Shown here in pieces: positions 10,620 to 28,558 of a DNA stretch of 64,000 nt. The stretch lies in IMG/VR virus record IMGVR_UViG_3300017716_001697, positions 192,001-256,000 of that record. One strand, 5' to 3'. Origin of the DNA: a virus. Lineage: Duplodnaviria; Caudoviricetes. Both the position numbers and the translations under genes were made by a program. A model generated the notes under the pieces. The model worked only from the letters and a program-made list of their open reading frames with translations. It did no database searches and was not told the DNA's origin. Positions within the stretch are counted from its first letter, which is position 1, and every line of letters starts with the position of its first letter.

Positions 10620-11677
10620 TCAGCAAATTTAGACTCCAACCAGGCATAGTTATTAATCAACCCGAGCATATCGGGTTGATTCTTATGTGATGTACCAAAC
10701 ATAACGCCAGCCTTTGCACCAGCGATTGCGAAATCACCAAATTCGCGATCATGCCCTTTTTCACACCATATTGCTAAACGTTCTTCTGTTTCGACATCAA
10801 CGCCGTTAGATATTAGTTTAGCAGACAGTTTAGTGCATTCTCTAAACCCGCTTCTCCAAGCAGAGAATGGGTCAACGTTAAACTTAGTGACATTACTTAC
10901 TTCCGGCATAACTTTGAAATGTGGTGATACCGTTGTAGTGAAATCTATTGGTGCACCAGAATATTCCAGCACCATCTGTCTAGGGAACAGCTTGACACCA
11001 CCATATCCGTAAATAAGATCGTTTACTGGATTTCTGGAATACCATACGTGTGTAGAATCTTCATTATATCCGTTGGGCTTATAATCGAAATTAAACGAAG
11101 GTTCGATTTCTGCGTCTGCATCAACAACAAAGAACATATGTGATTCGGCTTTTCTTGCTGCGGCCTTGTGTGCTTCAAGAATACCCTTAACACCGTGAGA
11201 CCGTTTTGCTAAAGGAAATCTATCCTTTAATTTAGCATAGCTATCATCTGCATTGCTTTCATCAAAACTTATGAATACAATGTCTAGTGGCATGTACTCA
11301 AATATCTTACCATACATTACCTTGATAGGCACATTACCTAATTTCATTTGACTGTCGGTATATTTTTCTGCATCGGCCAACACCAAATCTTTATTAAATA
11401 ATCTAACGTTAGAATTGTTATTCCATAGGTGAACCAATTTACTATCCCAGGCCGGTGGCTTGAATGAGAAATCGAACATAGGGAATTTTATTTCTATGTC
11501 ACTGTTTATGACATAGAAGAATTCAGTAGTACTTAATAACGCCATACGATACAGTTCAGCGGCCGATATTTCATCTGACTCTAACTGTATTTTGGCATTA
11601 AAGAATGTGTGACTACCTATTGCATCTGCTACTCGTTTTAATAGATTGGTATATGTTATGAATACGTGTTGTGACAT
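10616..11677 (-). CDS. GT-A fold glycosyltransferase-like protein
   Basis: DIVFISFDE, FFVVDAD (DxD motif), YGYGGVKLFP; degenerate N-terminal copy of the domain. Confidence 0.7.
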   Translation of the reverse strand: MSQHVFITYTNLLKRVADAIGSHTFFNAKIQLESDEISAAELYRMALLSTTEFFYVINSDIEIKFPMFDFSFKPPAWDSKLVHLWNNNSNVRLFNKDLVLADAEKYTDSQMKLGNVPIKVMYGKIFEYMPLDIVFISFDESNADDSYAKLKDRFPLAKRSHGVKGILEAHKAAARKAESHMFFVVDADAEIEPSFNFDYKPNGYNEDSTHVWYSRNPVNDLIYGYGGVKLFPRQMVLEYSGAPIDFTTTVSPHFKVMPEVSNVTKFNVDPFSAWRSGFRECTKLSAKLISNGVDVETEERLAIWCEKGHDREFGDFAIAGAKAGVMFGTSHKNQPDMLGLINNYAWLESKFAD

Positions 11678-15150: not shown

Positions 15151-15371
15151 TAGCACTTACATTATATGTAGATGAATATGAAGATCAACAACCATACATA
15201 GATTATGTGAAAGGGCTGGCAGGGGTAACATTCAGGCCATTCAGTCCTGTGTATGTATACGGCGAAGATGAGCCGTTAGGGTTCACGATGATAATTTTTG
15301 CGATAGATGATGAAGTAGCAACAATGCTATCATTGAGATACGGTGACAAGATTGAAACAAGGTCAGCATAA
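15147..15371 (+). CDS. Small protein (loose family A)
   Basis: FAIDDEVATMLSLRYG. Confidence 0.7.
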   Translation: MIALTLYVDEYEDQQPYIDYVKGLAGVTFRPFSPVYVYGEDEPLGFTMIIFAIDDEVATMLSLRYGDKIETRSA

Positions 15372-15384
15372 ACAAAATAACAAA

Positions 15385-15630
15385 ATGGTAAAGAACTATT
15401 ATATCAGAGTTGATCGAGAGATATTACCTGCATTCTTTGATTTCTGTGCTAGGACAAAATTAGAAGAGCATCACCACTCGACAGGGTTTGTTACAAAGCA
15501 TGCAGGCACTACTTTATTCAGATTGACAATGACTGAATCAGATAGAACAGCAATGGCACTGGCGGTTCCGGTAAGTATAATGCTTGATCCGAACAGCGAC
15601 CGAAATATTAAACAACCCGTAGGAGCATAA
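15385..15630 (+). CDS. Small protein (loose family A)
   Basis: LTMTESDRTAMALA. Confidence 0.6.
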   Translation: MVKNYYIRVDREILPAFFDFCARTKLEEHHHSTGFVTKHAGTTLFRLTMTESDRTAMALAVPVSIMLDPNSDRNIKQPVGA

Positions 15631-20574: not shown

Positions 20575-20745
20575 ATGATTTGTCCGAAATGTGATACACT
20601 GATGGGTGCAATGGGGTATGGTGATGAACGGTGTCCTGCTTGTGGACACACATCATATTCTGAATCTGATGAAGAATTTAATCTTCGCATATACGGTACA
20701 ACATTCCGTGAAGGCGAAGATATTGACACTGAACAAAGAGAATAA
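20575..20745 (+). CDS. Small Zn-ribbon protein (56 aa, absent from ORF track)
   Basis: MICPKC...RCPACG; stop 1 nt before the rtcB ATG. Confidence 0.7.
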   Translation: MICPKCDTLMGAMGYGDERCPACGHTSYSESDEEFNLRIYGTTFREGEDIDTEQRE

Positions 20746-20746
20746 T

Positions 20747-21940
20747 ATGGAAATCGAAAATGTAAAAATGTGGGTAGGTGATATGGAAGTAGAGCAAGCA
20801 GCTCTATCCCAAATCCTAAACATTTCCCAACTACCTATCCTTGCTGGACACATGGCTATCATGCCAGACGTACACATGGGTAAAGGTGCCACTGTGGGTT
20901 CTGTTATCCCTACACGTTCTGCAATTATTCCTGCGGCTGTGGGTGTGGATATCGGCTGTGGTATGATTGCAGCAATGACCAACCTTACTGCCGATGATCT
21001 TCCTGACTCATTGTTTTCGTTGCGTAATGCAATTGAAAAGGTAGTACCTGTAGGATTCAACGAACACGCAAAGGGCATCCCTTCTGTATCGGGACCTTAC
21101 GCAGATATCCTGCGCAAGAATTTGCACAAGACAATGGATCAATGGGATCACTTGGCAATGAAGCAGCACCTTGGTCGTGCTGACGAAAAGCGCATTGCTC
21201 GCCAAATCGGTACGCTAGGTGGTGGTAACCACTTTATCGAAATCTGTCTCGATACATCTAACCGTGTGTGGATTATGTTACACAGTGGTTCACGCGGTAT
21301 CGGCAATCAAATCGGCACTGTTGCAATCGAAATGGCTAAAGAACAGGCTGCTAAACGTGCATGGGGTCTCCCTGATGCTGATCTTGCATGGCTGGACGAA
21401 GGCACAACCGAATTCGATGCATACATTGAGGCAATGCATTGGGCACAGGACTATGCAAAATTCAACCGCGATACAATGCTGAATTTGGTTATTTCTGCAA
21501 TGAAGGTAAAGTTTCCTACAATGAAGATTGTTGGCGAAGTTGTAAACTGCCACCATAATTTTACAAGCGTGGAAGAGCACTTCAATGAAAAGATCTGGGT
21601 GACACGTAAGGGTGCAGTTTCTGCGCAGTATGGGCAAATGGGTATTATTCCCGGCTCAATGGGTGCAAAGTCATTCATTGTTCGCGGTAAAGGTAATCCT
21701 GATTCCTACTGCTCGTGTTCGCATGGTGCTGGTCGTAAGATGAGCCGCAACCAAGCTAAGAAGTTGTTCACATCACTTGATCTAGAACAACAAACAGCCG
21801 GTGTTGAGTGCCGTAAGGATGCAGACGTAGTTGATGAAATTCCGGGTGCATATAAGGATATTGATCAGGTAATGGCAGCGCAGGCTGATTTGGTTGATAT
21901 TGTACACACGTTGAAGCAAGTTCTTTGTATTAAGGGGTAA
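20747..21940 (+). CDS. rtcB: RtcB RNA ligase (joins 3'-P or 2',3'-cyclic-P to 5'-OH)
   Basis: PDVHMGKG, VGVDIGCG, GTLGGGNHFIE, HSGSRG, HHNF, RKGA, PGSMG, SHGAGR, YKDI motifs. Confidence 0.97.
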   Translation: MEIENVKMWVGDMEVEQAALSQILNISQLPILAGHMAIMPDVHMGKGATVGSVIPTRSAIIPAAVGVDIGCGMIAAMTNLTADDLPDSLFSLRNAIEKVVPVGFNEHAKGIPSVSGPYADILRKNLHKTMDQWDHLAMKQHLGRADEKRIARQIGTLGGGNHFIEICLDTSNRVWIMLHSGSRGIGNQIGTVAIEMAKEQAAKRAWGLPDADLAWLDEGTTEFDAYIEAMHWAQDYAKFNRDTMLNLVISAMKVKFPTMKIVGEVVNCHHNFTSVEEHFNEKIWVTRKGAVSAQYGQMGIIPGSMGAKSFIVRGKGNPDSYCSCSHGAGRKMSRNQAKKLFTSLDLEQQTAGVECRKDADVVDEIPGAYKDIDQVMAAQADLVDIVHTLKQVLCIKG

Positions 21941-23720: not shown

Positions 23721-23724
23721 GTGC

Positions 23725-23753
23725 TTGCCCTGATTCCTGTTATATTGTATAAT
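23725..23753 (+). promoter_or_regulatory. sigma70-type promoter
   Basis: TTGCCC-N17-TATAAT. Confidence 0.6.
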
Positions 23754-23759
23754 AGGGTT

Positions 23760-24272
23760 ATGAAGCACATACTATTACTACTGGCATTAATCCCTACCAC
23801 TGTAGAATTAGGTAAAGACATCATCTGCCGACGTGACCCACCTAAGATTGATGCTGCACAAGCAAAATGTTTGGCCACTACCATTTACGGCGAAGCTCGC
23901 GGGGAGAGCGAGAAGGGTCAGGTAGCAGTAGCATATACTGTCATGAATCGTGCTGTAAACCGCACATTATGCCAGGTTGCACTAGCACCTAAGCAGTACA
24001 GCATCTTTAACAATAACCCTGAATTACGAGCTGCGGCTACAAGCATGCATATCGAGCCAAAGCAGAAAAATGTCATCGATCAGAAAAGTTGGGATCGTGC
24101 TGTTAAGGTTGCTAACATGGTAATCCAACGTGCAGTCAAGGACCCAACTAACGGTGCAACACATTATCTTGCACCAATCGTAATGAAGGCTAAAAACTAT
24201 CGTTATCCGCGCTGGTCTAGGGAATACAAATTGGTCGCAGTGATTGACGGGCACAAATTCTTCAAAGCATAA
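23760..24272 (+). CDS. SleB-like cell wall hydrolase (Hydrolase_2)
   Basis: CLATTIYGEARGES...QVAVAYTVMNR, QYS, GATHY, IDGHKFF; signal peptide. Confidence 0.92.
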   Translation: MKHILLLLALIPTTVELGKDIICRRDPPKIDAAQAKCLATTIYGEARGESEKGQVAVAYTVMNRAVNRTLCQVALAPKQYSIFNNNPELRAAATSMHIEPKQKNVIDQKSWDRAVKVANMVIQRAVKDPTNGATHYLAPIVMKAKNYRYPRWSREYKLVAVIDGHKFFKA

Positions 24273-25176: not shown

Positions 25177-25506
25177 ATGACACAACTGAACGCAAAATCC
25201 AATCCTATCGAGTACATGCATTTCCGACCGATCTTCCGTGATGTGTCCGGTGGCGCAACTGTTGCCATCATGCCACGTGCAAGTTTGGGCACTGCATTGA
25301 TCTCTGTTGCTCGCTGCGGCCCAATGGACAACTTCAACAAGAAGATTGGCCGCGATGTTGCTACTGGTCGTCTGAGTGCATACCTGGCAGGTCGCCAATC
25401 TGTTGCAGGCCACGTGCGCGAAATTGCTGTGCCAGACATGCTCAAACTCAAAGAGACTGTTGCGATGGCCCTTGAAAACGAAATGGCTGACAACGATCTG
25501 GCGTAA
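25177..25506 (+). CDS. Hypothetical phage protein
   Basis: SVARC..DNFNKKIGRDVATGRL; biased codon usage. Confidence 0.8.
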   Translation: MTQLNAKSNPIEYMHFRPIFRDVSGGATVAIMPRASLGTALISVARCGPMDNFNKKIGRDVATGRLSAYLAGRQSVAGHVREIAVPDMLKLKETVAMALENEMADNDLA

Positions 25507-25603: not shown

Positions 25604-25663
25604 GGCTCTGTTTTAAGTTAAAAATTGCGTATACCAGATAAATAAGTGTAGGAGACTACACTT

Positions 25664-26290
25664 ATGATATGCGAATACGGATGTAATGGGGAGGCCAATC
25701 ATCAATTACTAAACGGTAAATGGTGTTGCAGTAAACGGCCCGCTGGTTGCAAGGTGCTAAAGGCAGTTAACTCGGCAGGTCTGAAGAAAGCGCATAGTGA
25801 GGGTAGGGGCGGATATATTTACAAAGATCTATCTGACGAAACCAAAGCCCGAATGAATTGGGCTAAGGGTAAGACTATTACACCCGATAGCGAAATATTT
25901 ACAGAAAATAGCACATACTCTAACGAGATGGTTAAACATAGAATTGTTAAAGGTGATCTATTAGAATACAAATGCTCTAATCCGAAATGTGGAATAACCG
26001 AATGGTGCGACGAATCTATTGTGTTAGATTTGGATCATATAAATGGTAACAACACAGATAACAGATTATCTAATTTACGATACTTATGCCCAAATTGCCA
26101 TTCTCAGACAGACACATACAAGGGCAGAAATAAGAATACAGGTAAGTTGAAAGTAACCGACACTGAATTGTTGGCAGCATATAAGGAATGCAATAATATT
26201 AGGCAAGCATTAATCAGCGTAGGAATTGCTGCAAAGGGTGGCAATTATGAAAGATTAAAAAAATTAATTAGCAAAACGCTTGCCCTATAG
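25664..26290 (+). CDS. Free-standing HNH homing endonuclease
   Basis: LDLDHINGNNTDNRLSNLRYLCPNCHSQT; N-terminal CEYGC..WCC Zn motif; C-terminal HTH-like tail; late box GATAAATA and RBS AGGAG. Confidence 0.9.
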   Translation: MICEYGCNGEANHQLLNGKWCCSKRPAGCKVLKAVNSAGLKKAHSEGRGGYIYKDLSDETKARMNWAKGKTITPDSEIFTENSTYSNEMVKHRIVKGDLLEYKCSNPKCGITEWCDESIVLDLDHINGNNTDNRLSNLRYLCPNCHSQTDTYKGRNKNTGKLKVTDTELLAAYKECNNIRQALISVGIAAKGGNYERLKKLISKTLAL

Positions 26291-26308
26291 CTAAATATGT
26301 TGTATAAT
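26280..26308 (+). promoter_or_regulatory. Promoter for the tRNA/ncRNA array
   Basis: TTGCCC-N17-TATAAT with an internal TAAATA. Confidence 0.6.
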
Positions 26309-26358
26309 TAATGCATAGCAGCTGATTACAGTAGCTTGTAGAGATCATTAATAAATTA

Positions 26359-26648
26359 GCGGGTATGGAGAAATTGGTAAACTCACCAGACTTAGAGAAA
26401 TAAAATTTGAGTGCCCGGTCGGAAACGATCGGAGTAGAACCTGTCAAATTCGGCGAACACTTTAACATGTCAACGCCGAGCGAAGCCCGAAAGGGAACGT
26501 GTAGAGACTTGACGGCAGGTACCTAACGCAGAAATGCTACGGTAAAGACAAAGTCCAGACTATCAAACCGAGAGGGTAGCGAAAGCTATAGTAGTAAGAA
26601 AATCTGGCGCCGCAAGGCTTGACGGTTCAAGTCCGTCTACCCGCACCA
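26359..26648 (+). tRNA. trnL: tRNA-Leu(UAA) interrupted by a group I intron
   Basis: Exons 26359..26393 and 26599..26648 join into GCGGGTA/TACCCGC acceptor, CCAGA-CTTAAAA-TCTGG anticodon arm, long variable arm and ACCA. Confidence 0.93.
26394..26598 (+). mobile_element. Group I intron (IC3-like, 205 nt, no ORF)
   Basis: P1 ACTT/GAGT with U-G at the splice site; P AAATTCGGCGAA, Q AACGCCGAGCGAAG, R GTGTAGAGACT, S AAGACAAAGTCC; terminal G. Confidence 0.92.
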
Positions 26649-26746
26649 TATTAGGATACATTGTGCAGACGCGGTAGCTAGCCCAAAAGGGACTTTACTA
26701 GCGACAATGGTGAATGCAGGTACAACAGTGTATCCCAATATGGTGC
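26643..26746 (+). ncRNA. Array element E1 (long closing stem, branched interior)
   Basis: GCACCATATT-A-GGATACATTGT / ACAGTGTATCC-C-AATATGGTGC. Confidence 0.75.
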
Positions 26747-26927
26747 CATATTAAAACGCATAAATGCATTAGTTGCATTGGTAATCTGAATGACGTGGAT
26801 AGCTGCATCTTACCCACTGTCAAACAGAGGACATTGCAGGTGATAGCAAATGTAATGGTTTACAGCTAGGCGATTAGAGTCTGGTAGGTGGGTTCAACTC
26901 CTGCTAATGCGGTTTAACATGGCACCA
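26744..26927 (+). ncRNA. Array element E2 (long stem enclosing a tRNA-like domain, ends in CCA)
   Basis: TGCCATATTAAAACGCAT / ATGCGGTTTAACATGGCA; internal T-arm GTGGG-TTCAACT-CCTGC. Confidence 0.7.
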
Positions 26928-27017
26928 TATCGAAGTACATTAACTGAGTACAAGGCTCAGCGTGCGAATTTTAGTAACTAAGCCTCAAGAGGAAGCTATA
27001 GTGTACTTCGATATGGT
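26924..27017 (+). ncRNA. Array element E3
   Basis: Perfect 16-bp stem ACCATATCGAAGTACA/TGTACTTCGATATGGT with three small internal hairpins. Confidence 0.8.
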
Positions 27018-27065
27018 ATAATGTAGACGTATATTGTAACATACACGGAAGGTAATTGGTCCGTG

Positions 27066-27189
27066 AAACTCGACTGTGGTGTAATGGTAGCACTCAAAAG
27101 TTCCTGGTTCGAATCCAGGCCCGCAATAACCAAAGGGGGTTCGGCACAACGAGTAGGAGAGATGGTTCGATTCCGTCCGAATAGAGTTT
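27066..27189 (+). ncRNA. Element E4: D-arm plus two T-arms, no anticodon arm
   Basis: GTGT-AATGGTA-GCAC; CCTGG-TTCGAAT-CCAGG; GATGG-TTCGATT-CCGTC; closed by AAACTC/GAGTTT. Confidence 0.6.
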
Positions 27190-27190
27190 G

Positions 27191-27269
27191 CATATTAGAG
27201 GGCATTATGCTTCTATTTAAAAAGGGAGCCTGTGCTGGCACATTGGCACATCTAATGTCCTCTAATATG
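27191..27269 (+). ncRNA. Array element E5
   Basis: 17-bp stem CATATTAGAGGGCATTA/TAATGTCCTCTAATATG. Confidence 0.8.
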
Positions 27270-27423
27270 ATGCAGGTAGGCAAATGTGGTAAAGCCGCCG
27301 GTTCGGTCCGGTGAGAGATATGTTGAAGTCTTACATGATGACGGGTAGCTGGGTCGACACAGTCCGTACAGTGGCAGGAGCGATATATTTCGTTTATGGG
27401 TTCGATTCCCATCTTGTATCCCA
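27269..27423 (+). ncRNA. tRNA-His-like RNA with 84-nt variable region and 6-nt anticodon loop
   Basis: G-1:C73 pair, acceptor ATGCAGG/CTTGTAT, D-arm GGC/GCC, T-arm ATGGG-TTCGATT-CCCAT, CCA end. Confidence 0.7.
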
Positions 27424-27428
27424 GAATA

Positions 27429-27628
27429 GCCAGGGTAGCTCAGTCAGGCACGAAACTTAAAGGGAAGATGTTGCAACATTCAACGGAGAGAAGTAATGAC
27501 TTAGGAAGGTTAAGTAGTAAGCATCTTATGATACGCGGTGTAAGGTGTGTAGGTGATAGCCAACTATTAAGTAGAGCAACCAGTATCTAACTGGAAGGTC
27601 GTTGGTTCAATTCCATCCGCTGGCACCA
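27429..27628 (+). ncRNA. tRNA-like RNA with a ~120-nt structured D-loop insertion
   Basis: Acceptor GCCAGGG/CGCTGGC, D-stem GCTC/GAGC enclosing 132 nt, anticodon arm CCAG-TATCTAA-CTGG, T-loop TTCAATT, ACCA. Confidence 0.75.
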
Positions 27629-27634
27629 AATTAT

Positions 27635-27749
27635 GCGATGATAGCTTCAGGTTGGTAGAGCGCGTCATTGAATGCCCTATTTATTCTACGTTATGGTATA
27701 TAGGCGAGTGGTCAGGACGAGGTCGCAGGTTCAACGCCTGCTCATTGTA
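27635..27749 (+). ncRNA. tRNA-Phe(GAA)-like RNA with ~40 extra nt in the anticodon loop
   Basis: Acceptor GCGATGA/TCATTGT, D-arm GCTT/GAGC, CGTCA-TT-GAA...GGACG, T-arm GCAGG-TTCAACG-CCTGC. Confidence 0.72.
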
Positions 27750-27753
27750 TAAG

Positions 27754-27861
27754 CCATATGAGAATACACTGTGGAGAGCACTGCGTATGACTGGGAAGGT
27801 TTGAACCCGACTCACATCGTCACTCGGTATCCTGCGGCCGCAACAGTGTATTCCCATATGG
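27754..27861 (+). ncRNA. Array element E7 (paralog of E1)
   Basis: CCATATG-A-GAATACACTGT / ACAGTGTATTC-C-CATATGG; compensatory changes relative to E1. Confidence 0.8.
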
Positions 27862-28185
27862 TACGAAGGGTAGAAGATGATATCAAAGGCTATTTCCTTT
27901 TTTGATAGACGAAACGCTGTGGCCACGGTGTTAGACTACTTATTGGTTAACCATTGTACCGCCAGATTCCGAAGCCTGTAATCAGGCCTGCCAAACAGTA
28001 AATTGGAGTGTGGGAGGACGCACTTAAAACCATCTCCCGCAGGGTCACCATGTGTTATGAGCGGTGATAGTTTAGCGAACCGGAGTCCTAAAAACCGGAA
28101 GGGTAAAGCAAACTTACCTACAAGTAGCGAAAGGTCTGCTATAGCAGTCAAGCCATCCTAGTCTGGAAAACTAGGGTGCATTTAT
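27862..28185 (+). ncRNA. Unassigned multi-hairpin RNA ending in a terminator-like stem
   Basis: Stems TATCAAA/TTTGATA, GCCTG/CAGGC, GAGTGTG/CGCACTT, TCACC/GGTGA, GGGTAA/TTACCT, CATCCTAG/CTAGGGTG. Confidence 0.45.
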
Positions 28186-28348
28186 TTTAGAAAGATATCC
28201 ATATGTACACTTATGCATGGACCATATTTGGTTATTACGGTGGACCTACTATGACAACAAATTATCAACAACACTGTTCGTGGTACACTGTTGACGATTT
28301 TGGTGATCTCGTACCTGCCACATACAAAATGGATTATTTGGAGACAAC

Positions 28349-28558
28349 ATGACACAGAAAATTTACGGATTAATTGCTGACGGCGGTGACGGAAGTTCTA
28401 GCATGCGTTGGTTTCGATCTTTTGATAAGGTTAACGAATTGCTCGACGAAGAGAATGGGCACGAGGAATATTGGGCGAACGAAGGCGGACCTGCCGAAAG
28501 ACTTACCTTCCCCGATGATCTTAATCTTGAGGAGTGCGGATTCTACTTTAGTGACTGA
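28349..28558 (+). CDS. Acidic hypothetical protein
   Basis: RBS GGAG; DGGDGSSS...WF. Confidence 0.7.
   Translation: MTQKIYGLIADGGDGSSSMRWFRSFDKVNELLDEENGHEEYWANEGGPAERLTFPDDLNLEECGFYFSD

Follow-up and report, generated by a model that had tools for sequence, protein, structure and literature searches.

A compact group I intron splits the tRNA-Leu(UAA) gene of a jumbo phage and lies beside a free-standing HNH endonuclease gene

The window, meaning the whole stretch of 64,000 nucleotides that was analysed, corresponds to bases 192001-256000 of a 364,576-bp IMG/VR virus record, which carries direct terminal repeats and is rated complete. Its genes are phage-like: besides RtcB and an ATP-dependent DNA ligase it encodes HNH endonucleases, and many small ORFs lie on the same strand. 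Contamination or a bacterial origin was considered and ruled out, since the virus record is complete, with direct terminal repeats, and its relatives are syntenic. Besides the split gene described here, the genome encodes 45 tRNAs and a tmRNA. UUA is the top leucine codon in the long ORFs of this phage (32%; UUA and UUG together 53%), so tRNA-Leu(UAA) is in demand. The only other tRNA with the UAA anticodon is 77 nt long and class-I-shaped and lies in the main tRNA cluster, and because of this second tRNA the split gene may not be essential.

ARAGORN with introns allowed placed a tRNA-Leu(taa) gene at 26359-26648 and set its 205-nt intron between gactt and aaaat. The gene was called neither by ARAGORN in default mode nor by the Rfam tRNA model. 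The features of the locus are as follows, and those inside the intron refer to the helix model described below.

25664-26290, plus strand: free-standing HNH endonuclease gene of 208 aa, candidate trans-acting homing enzyme, ending 68 nt upstream of the tRNA
26280-26308, plus strand: promoter-like sequence TTGCCC-17-TATAAT between HNH stop codon and tRNA (consensus scan 10/12), a consensus match that does not in itself indicate function
26359-26393, plus strand: tRNA-Leu(UAA) exon 1, with the acceptor 5' strand, D arm, anticodon-stem 5' strand and C32 U33 U34 (ARAGORN and sequence)
26390-26412, plus strand: P1 hairpin, exon ACUU (26390-26393) with the internal guide GAGU (26409-26412), from the minimum-energy fold
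26394-26598, plus strand: group I intron, ORF-less, 205 nt, IC3-like, at the 'Leu.3Ug' site, with terminal G26598 (Rfam Intron_gpI, ARAGORN bounds, covariation)
26415-26432, plus strand: P2, 7 bp with a GAAA loop, 7 of 7 pairs with changes on both sides
26439-26520, plus strand: P3 (26439-26445 with 26514-26520), 5 of 7 pairs with compensatory changes, P4 to P6a enclosed
26450-26455 with 26474-26479, plus strand: P4, within P3 (P4-P6 conserved or covarying)
26458-26460 with 26469-26471, plus strand: P5, within P3 (conserved or covarying, as P4)
26481-26482 with 26498-26499, plus strand: P6, within P3, covarying
26486-26495, plus strand: P6a with a GAAA loop, within P3
26506-26555, plus strand: P7 (26506-26510 with 26551-26555), the guanosine-binding helix, 100% paired, enclosing P8
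26521-26543, plus strand: P8 with a GAAA loop, within P7, pairs covarying
26559-26595, plus strand: 3' domain, composed of P9.0, a GAGA-loop hairpin and P9b
26559-26563 with 26591-26595, plus strand: P9.0, 98.5% paired, with C-G/U-A covariation
26568-26575, plus strand: 2-bp hairpin with a GAGA loop, in the 3' domain
26576-26589, plus strand: P9b with a GAAA loop, 5 of 5 pairs covarying
26599-26648, plus strand: tRNA-Leu(UAA) exon 2, with A35 A36, anticodon-stem 3' strand, long variable arm, T arm, acceptor 3' strand, A73 and encoded CCA (ARAGORN)

When the exons are joined, they give a class-II tRNA-Leu(UAA) cloverleaf of 85 nt without any flaw, as the preliminary description of this DNA had proposed. 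The ARAGORN structure has a fully paired acceptor stem of 7 bp, anticodon and T stems of 5 bp and a long variable arm, and the joined molecule shows the UAA anticodon, the G18 G19 and T-loop motifs, the discriminator A73 and an encoded CCA. The whole 290-nt gene was also found in a wastewater contig with just 4 differences. The contigs of four wastewater runs, which are probably DNA, showed no joint across 26394-26598, and this says nothing on splicing either way. No terminator was predicted at the locus. A minus-strand ORF at 26268-26468 (66 aa), which overlaps exon 1 and the intron, was taken as spurious.

What interrupts this phage tRNA-Leu(UAA) gene at U34/A35 is a group I intron. The Rfam model Intron_gpI (RF00028) matched 26339-26574 with 53 bits (E = 1.2e-10), only 3 bits above the gathering score of 50 bits, and no other group I match was found anywhere in the genome of 364,576 bp. 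The R element GTAGAGACTTGACGG at 26501-26515 and the S element AAGACAAAGTCC at 26545-26556 could be read from the sequence. In P1, C32, U33 and U34 pair with GAG at 26409-26411, and A31, the last base of the anticodon stem, pairs with U26412; the wobble at the 5' splice site is U26393·G26409. A P10 is possible between UUU at 26406-26408 and the complementary AAA of exon 2 (26599-26601). Five loops of GNRA type are present in the intron, namely L2, L6a, L8 and those of the two 3' hairpins. The precursor tRNA folds with z = -4.2 relative to shuffled sequences. There is one C·C mismatch in P5, and the putative tetraloop receptor for P8 is non-canonical by our reading of the sequence.

The helix model, from P1 to P9.0 with the two 3' hairpins, was tested on an alignment of 27 non-redundant phage homologues. 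Over the 54 pairs of the model 93.5% of the cells were paired, against 26-42% when the pairing partners were shifted by 1-3 columns. Changes on both sides were found in 32 of the 54 pairs, and none of 500 shuffles reached any of the measures. Compensatory changes were seen in P2, P3, P6, P7, P8, P9.0 and P9b, and the fifth pair of P7 is switched between U-A and A-U (9 versus 18 sequences). The U·G at the 5' splice site, the three core pairs of P1 (27 of 27 sequences in both cases) and the terminal G are invariant. In total 78 columns do not vary among the homologues, and the intron of the window keeps every one of them. The preliminary description had listed a complete 205-nt intron with a U-G pair in P1, the conserved core elements and a terminal G; all of these lie where it placed them, and the covariance search it suggested has now passed the cut-off of the family. 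From sequence and covariation, the intron is very probably active in splicing.

The junction in the window, CUU/…g/AAAA between U34 and A35 in the ARAGORN call, is that of the 'Leu.3Ug' site, which the group I intron database assigns to subgroup IC3 and which is one of four bacterial tRNA intron types marked IC3 (Williams 2020, bioRxiv 10.1101/2020.01.27.920355). The split is thus identical with the classical one, and the earlier assignment of the insertion to the IC3 tRNA-Leu(UAA) site holds. The intron is assigned to the IC3 subgroup, a label resting on the literature and on our own reading. It shares with the bacterial Leu.3Ug introns, including those of Nostoc and Anabaena, the same insertion site and junction, and with the bacterial type also the U·G at the 5' splice site, the terminal G, a P1 made from bases of the anticodon loop and an intact anticodon stem. 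It differs in its jumbo-phage host, in its shorter length of 205 nt and in an additional 2-bp GNRA hairpin in the 3' domain. The Anabaena tRNA-Leu intron has about 249 nt. The group I intron in the pre-tRNA-Ile(CAU) of Azoarcus sp. BH72 (IC3, 'Ile2.5Ug') is close in size, with about 205 nt, and has a likewise very compact core with stabilising GAAA tetraloops in L2 and L9. However, the Azoarcus intron is inserted after position 36/37 of a tRNA-Ile(CAU) and the present one after position 34, the P5 of the window intron lacks the canonical 11-nt tetraloop receptor by sequence reading, and the 3' domain is laid out differently.

A core pattern derived from the window intron matched at least 120 bacterial contigs, and at least 71 of them have a tRNA-Leu(UAA) split at U34/A35. 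The window intron has the core strings in common with, and can be aligned to, 59 bacterial Leu(UAA) introns, mostly of Proteobacteria and Acidobacteriota, with no cyanobacterial or plastid reference among the matches listed. Other bacterial tRNAs were also split, including Met/Ile(CAU), Arg(CCU) and more (among the matches listed), and bacterial tRNA(CAU) introns ending in …CACAAACCGG/AATCC were matched by the same pattern. The median length, among the matches listed, was 202 nt for phage introns and 234 nt for bacterial introns. In a tree of these introns, of the kind the preliminary description had proposed, the phage copies fall mostly in clades apart from the bacterial ones, and the window copy sits on a long branch near the clade of the huge phage LR756501. 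The tree is indicative only, because its sample was chosen by the core pattern from among the matches listed; its bacterial side is mostly Proteobacteria and Acidobacteriota, with no cyanobacterial sequence among those matches.

In IMG/VR the core pattern was found in at least 119 contigs, at least 100 of which contain a split tRNA and at least 82 of these a split tRNA-Leu(UAA). The 735-kb huge phage LR756501 has a tRNA-Leu(UAA) with an intron of exactly 205 nt (Intron_gpI, 56.6 bits), and the 595-kb huge phage LR756511 has a tRNA-Leu(UAA) intron with an HNH ORF inside; introns are not mentioned in the paper that released the two genomes. A cultured carrier also exists. The 490-kb genome of Agrobacterium phage Atu_ph07 contains, at about 112.9-113.25 kb of MF403008.1, a tRNA-Leu(UAA) gene that the record leaves unannotated; its intron measures 278 nt (48.9 bits), and an annotated 'hypothetical protein' (AUZ94936.1) overlaps with exon 2 and the last part of the intron. 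The genome paper of this phage reports 33 tRNAs and no intron.

A review of bacterial group I introns from 2014 stated that phage introns had until then all been found in protein genes (PMC3984707), yet one short core pattern yields the contigs with split tRNAs counted above. In the Lak megaphage preprint 'enigmatic' introns of tRNA genes were described and stated to be the first in phage tRNAs (Devoto et al., bioRxiv 10.1101/356790). As in the window, those phage tRNA genes are broken in the anticodon loop, but the Lak inserts were not classified as group I, whereas the present insert is a clear group I ribozyme. Our search of the open-access literature turned up neither a description of group I introns in the tRNA genes of phages nor a later correction of the 2014 review; a paper under subscription may exist. 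The intron type has long been known from bacteria, and its setting in phage tRNAs is little described and common in sequence data. The mechanism is ordinary. Because standard tools miss the split gene here, and the Atu_ph07 copy is unannotated, phage tRNA repertoires and analyses of codon supply are incomplete.

The same intron core was seen in other phage tRNAs of IMG/VR, including Arg(UCU) at two positions of the loop, Lys(UUU), Thr, Ser, Asn and Met/Ile(CAU) (loci L039, L053, L063, L067, L038, L096, L061, L083, L115 and others). Parts of the core also occur inside protein genes of cultured phages, namely the capsid gene of Pelagibacter phage HTVC120P, the terminase gene of Vibrio phage VEN and the DNA polymerase region of Erwinia phage VL73 (records MH598807.1, NC_047903.1 and PP556867.1). 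Because of these matches, the ribozyme family is not restricted to tRNA genes.

The preliminary description mentioned neither the HNH gene upstream of the split tRNA nor the frequency of the arrangement in phages. This HNH gene is intact: the motif DH…N…CPNCH is complete and the ORF has full length compared with its homologues. The protein matched PHROG HNH families with E = 7e-33 and Pfam HNH_3 weakly. Searches of solved structures and NCBIfam turned up no homing enzyme with a name; the weak matches were to generic HNH cores (McrA, IscB, ZorE). For the small ORF further upstream (25177-25506) only one weak relative was found.

Relatives of this HNH protein are found around the same target in several arrangements. 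Identities of 36-45% (E = 1e-12 to 5e-40) link it to the ORFs carried by long tRNA-Leu(UAA) introns of about 680-850 nt from both phages and bacteria, where the HNH ORF lies mostly in the P6a loop and in either orientation; one full-length homologue lies in the P1 loop. All the long introns among the matches listed contain an HNH ORF (7 of 7 viral and 7 of 7 bacterial). In other phage contigs, tRNA-Leu genes with the intron have full-length homologues (43-67% identity) directly at their 5' end, and shorter ones lie about 220 nt downstream of such genes in still other contigs. For ORF-less introns with enough flank, an HNH homologue was present within 1 kb at 10 of 37 viral loci and at 1 of 36 bacterial loci, among the matches listed. 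The partnership is therefore not obligatory, as the remaining 27 viral loci among these matches have no HNH homologue within that distance. The window resembles the loci that have the HNH gene upstream only over about 25610-26660, that is, over a module of HNH gene plus tRNA, and this module was found again in phage neighbourhoods that are otherwise unrelated.

Homologues also occur beside uninterrupted tRNA genes. In T4-like coliphages, 6 nt separate such an HNH gene from the uninterrupted tRNA-Leu(UAA) downstream of it. The example of Escherichia phage ACG-C40 (NC_019399.1, 68.9-69.6 kb) is 43% identical over residues 73-201 of the window protein and stands at the head of the T4-type tRNA cluster. 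The window HNH has matches in about 80 Escherichia phage records, the T4-type records being listed at the same 43% identity, and such a patchy spread among Escherichia phages is typical of homing endonuclease genes. Since the HNH gene is kept beside an uninterrupted tRNA-Leu in T4-like phages, the intron is not needed there for self-immunity. In LR756508.1 (about 2.4-3.1 kb; 484-kb huge phage, locus L244) a full-length homologue with 46% identity is followed directly by a 75-nt tRNA with the anticodon UAG, so that the HNH family is again paired with a tRNA of leucine anticodon.

Free-standing homing endonucleases of phage tRNA gene clusters are known, T4 SegB being one. The ACG-C40 record notes a similarity of its HNH protein to T5 'TflIV'. 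In those systems the nuclease gene also lies directly beside a phage tRNA gene, but the neighbouring tRNAs have no intron.

Related jumbo phages were reached through a 350-aa protein encoded in the neighbourhood. The closest complete relative found, G001, has a genome of 369 kb and an RtcB with 80% identity, and its tRNA locus was located with a pattern search for the joined anticodon loop. G001 has an uninterrupted tRNA-Leu(UAA) of 85 nt at the syntenic place. The gene order common to both phages is tRNA-Arg(UCU), tRNA-Met(CAU), a homologue of ORF 23721-24272 (ORF183), tRNA-Leu(UAA) and a homologue of ORF 28349-28558 (ORF69). No group I intron was found in the entire G001 genome, and no HNH homologue at its tRNA-Leu locus. 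In the 8-kb flanks of the relatives, the module of HNH gene plus tRNA was absent beside the 350-aa gene.

Because the same gene stands at the syntenic G001 locus, the tRNA-Leu gene is resident in this lineage. The presence or absence of an intron at a resident gene therefore favours invasion in the window phage, or else a loss in the relative. The preliminary description had left it open whether the intron was acquired with the tRNA or invaded it, and the G001 allele narrows this choice toward invasion, with loss in G001 as the other reading. The presence of intron and HNH gene in the window and the lack of both in G001 is the hallmark of a mobile element. Exon 1 is 71-74% identical to exon 1 of the modules with an upstream HNH gene, against 60% to that of G001, and exon 2 is closest to that of G001 (80% identical). 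With exons of only 35 and 50 nt, this is a hint of co-conversion and not evidence for it.

Based on these results and on what is known for the intron family, we propose the following course of events. The gene would be transcribed as a precursor, in which the intron folds into P1-P9 and C32 U33 U34 form P1 with the internal guide, setting the U·G pair at the splice site. A free guanosine bound in P7 would attack after U34; then the terminal G26598 would enter the same site, P10 would align exon 2 and the exons would be joined. The product would be an 85-nt tRNA with the loop CUUAAAA, reading UUA and UUG, and in principle no protein would be necessary for the splicing. We consider it highly likely that this locus is a working class-II tRNA-Leu(UAA) gene of the 364-kb jumbo phage, split by a compact ORF-less 205-nt IC3 'Leu.3Ug' group I intron.

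The intron itself is probably a selfish mobile element. It is too short, with 205 nt, for a homing-endonuclease gene, and the arrangement found here is an ORF-less intron with an intact free-standing nuclease gene of homing type beside the split gene. Such arrangements of HNH gene and intron are predicted by the 'collaborative homing' route to mobile introns, according to review text. The upstream HNH protein would cut the intron-less tRNA-Leu(UAA) of co-infecting phages, and the repair would copy intron and HNH gene across. The nuclease relatives inside other copies of the intron would be the end state predicted by this model. Different from the model, the presumed target is a tRNA and not a protein gene, cleavage by the HNH protein is a candidate activity only, and the same HNH family stands beside uninterrupted tRNA-Leu genes. 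Since most loci have no HNH gene, we rate spread by collaborative homing with the upstream HNH at a little below even chance.

Somewhat more tentatively, a wider reading can be suggested: this single HNH family and the tRNA-Leu(UAA) intron would be partners in a homing system that is still evolving, moves from phage to phage and is exchanged with bacteria, with all predicted stages present. The HNH gene beside an uninterrupted tRNA-Leu in T4-like phages would represent one stage. Another would be an HNH gene beside an ORF-less intron, either upstream as in the window phage and its module relatives or downstream, and a further one an HNH gene that the intron carries within its P6a or P1 loop, whichever way the gene is oriented. 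The HNH protein would cut the intron-less genes of competitors and the intron would give immunity to its owner. In this intron family, free-standing, adjacent and intron-encoded versions of one nuclease thus surround one small and well-understood target. The syntenic intron-less allele, the homology of the HNH protein to intron-encoded nucleases and the recurrence of the module are new here. The natural intron-less allele of G001 and the cultured carrier Atu_ph07 put bench tests within reach.

The main competitor of homing is that intron and HNH gene are neighbours with no link between them, the nuclease having a target of its own and the intron being an immobile passenger spread vertically or by general recombination. 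We give this roughly one chance in three. Phage tRNA regions often contain free-standing HNH genes, as the T5 'TflIV' note of the ACG-C40 record recalls, the homologues beside an uninterrupted tRNA-Leu(UAA) in T4-like phages and beside the UAG-anticodon tRNA of LR756508 can do without the intron, and so can the intron without the nuclease at the majority of the viral ORF-less loci listed. Mere neighbourhood, however, does not account well for the same HNH family inside the same intron family in both phages and bacteria and in both orientations, nor for the enrichment of adjacency in phages among the matches listed; the HNH gene and the intron-bearing tRNA also behave as one block across unrelated neighbourhoods, and both are missing together from the syntenic G001 locus.

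It is rather improbable that the intron is kept for a benefit of the phage instead of being purely selfish, for example by delaying or gating the supply of tRNA-Leu(UAA) or by shielding it from anticodon-loop nucleases. The anticodon is split, so that no intact anticodon loop exists in the DNA or the precursor; RtcB (20606-21940), which the phage encodes, is a ligase for RNA repair often tied to tRNA damage; UUA is its top leucine codon; and the phage introns of the family are shorter and highly conserved. Yet the distribution is sporadic even in close relatives, G001 having the same gene without the intron, the association with a nuclease of homing type is typical of selfish elements, and the conservation of the core is explained by catalysis alone, no regulatory feature having been found. 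The earlier statement that the intron hides the anticodon until splicing is therefore right in a trivial sense, and nothing found here extends it to a regulatory role. Least probable, and in our opinion very unlikely, is a catalytically dead intron in a tRNA pseudogene, or else an intron that needs a protein to splice. The Rfam score barely above the cut-off, the C·C mismatch in P5 and the second UAA-anticodon tRNA point in this direction, but every column invariant in the 27 homologues is kept, all helices pair, the exons give a flawless cloverleaf with A73 and CCA, and the whole 290-nt gene recurs nearly unchanged in the wastewater contig.

Some further observations were made around the locus. 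Between tRNA-Leu and the next shared gene there are only 54 nt in G001 against 1.7 kb in the window (26649-28350), so this stretch is extra in the window phage. Its first 277 nt (26649-26925) contain no convincing ORF and fold with z = -4.2 against shuffles, and a T-arm-like GGTTCAACTCC is found near 26889. Rfam finds nothing in this part, and ARAGORN with introns gives a poor 'tRNA-Ile(aat) with 52-nt intron' at 26765-26912. At 27270-27423 the same program calls a CUA (amber-reading) tRNA split by a 62-nt insert; the call is weak, with a G·G in the anticodon stem, and could be spurious or represent a further interrupted tRNA. A tRNA with CUA anticodon is also present in the phage genome.

In the window, tRNA-Arg(UCU) and tRNA-Met(CAU) flank the RtcB RNA ligase gene (Pfam E = 1e-127), and the RtcB gene of G001 is about 30 kb distant from the tRNA locus. 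RtcB is not required for group I splicing, and tRNA repair is its more likely role. Outside the window, three tRNAs of 77 nt carry the leucine anticodons UAG, CAA and UAA (genome C1:8754-8830, 10631-10707 and 15366-15442), and their short variable loops give them a class-I shape, which is unusual for tRNA-Leu of bacterial type.
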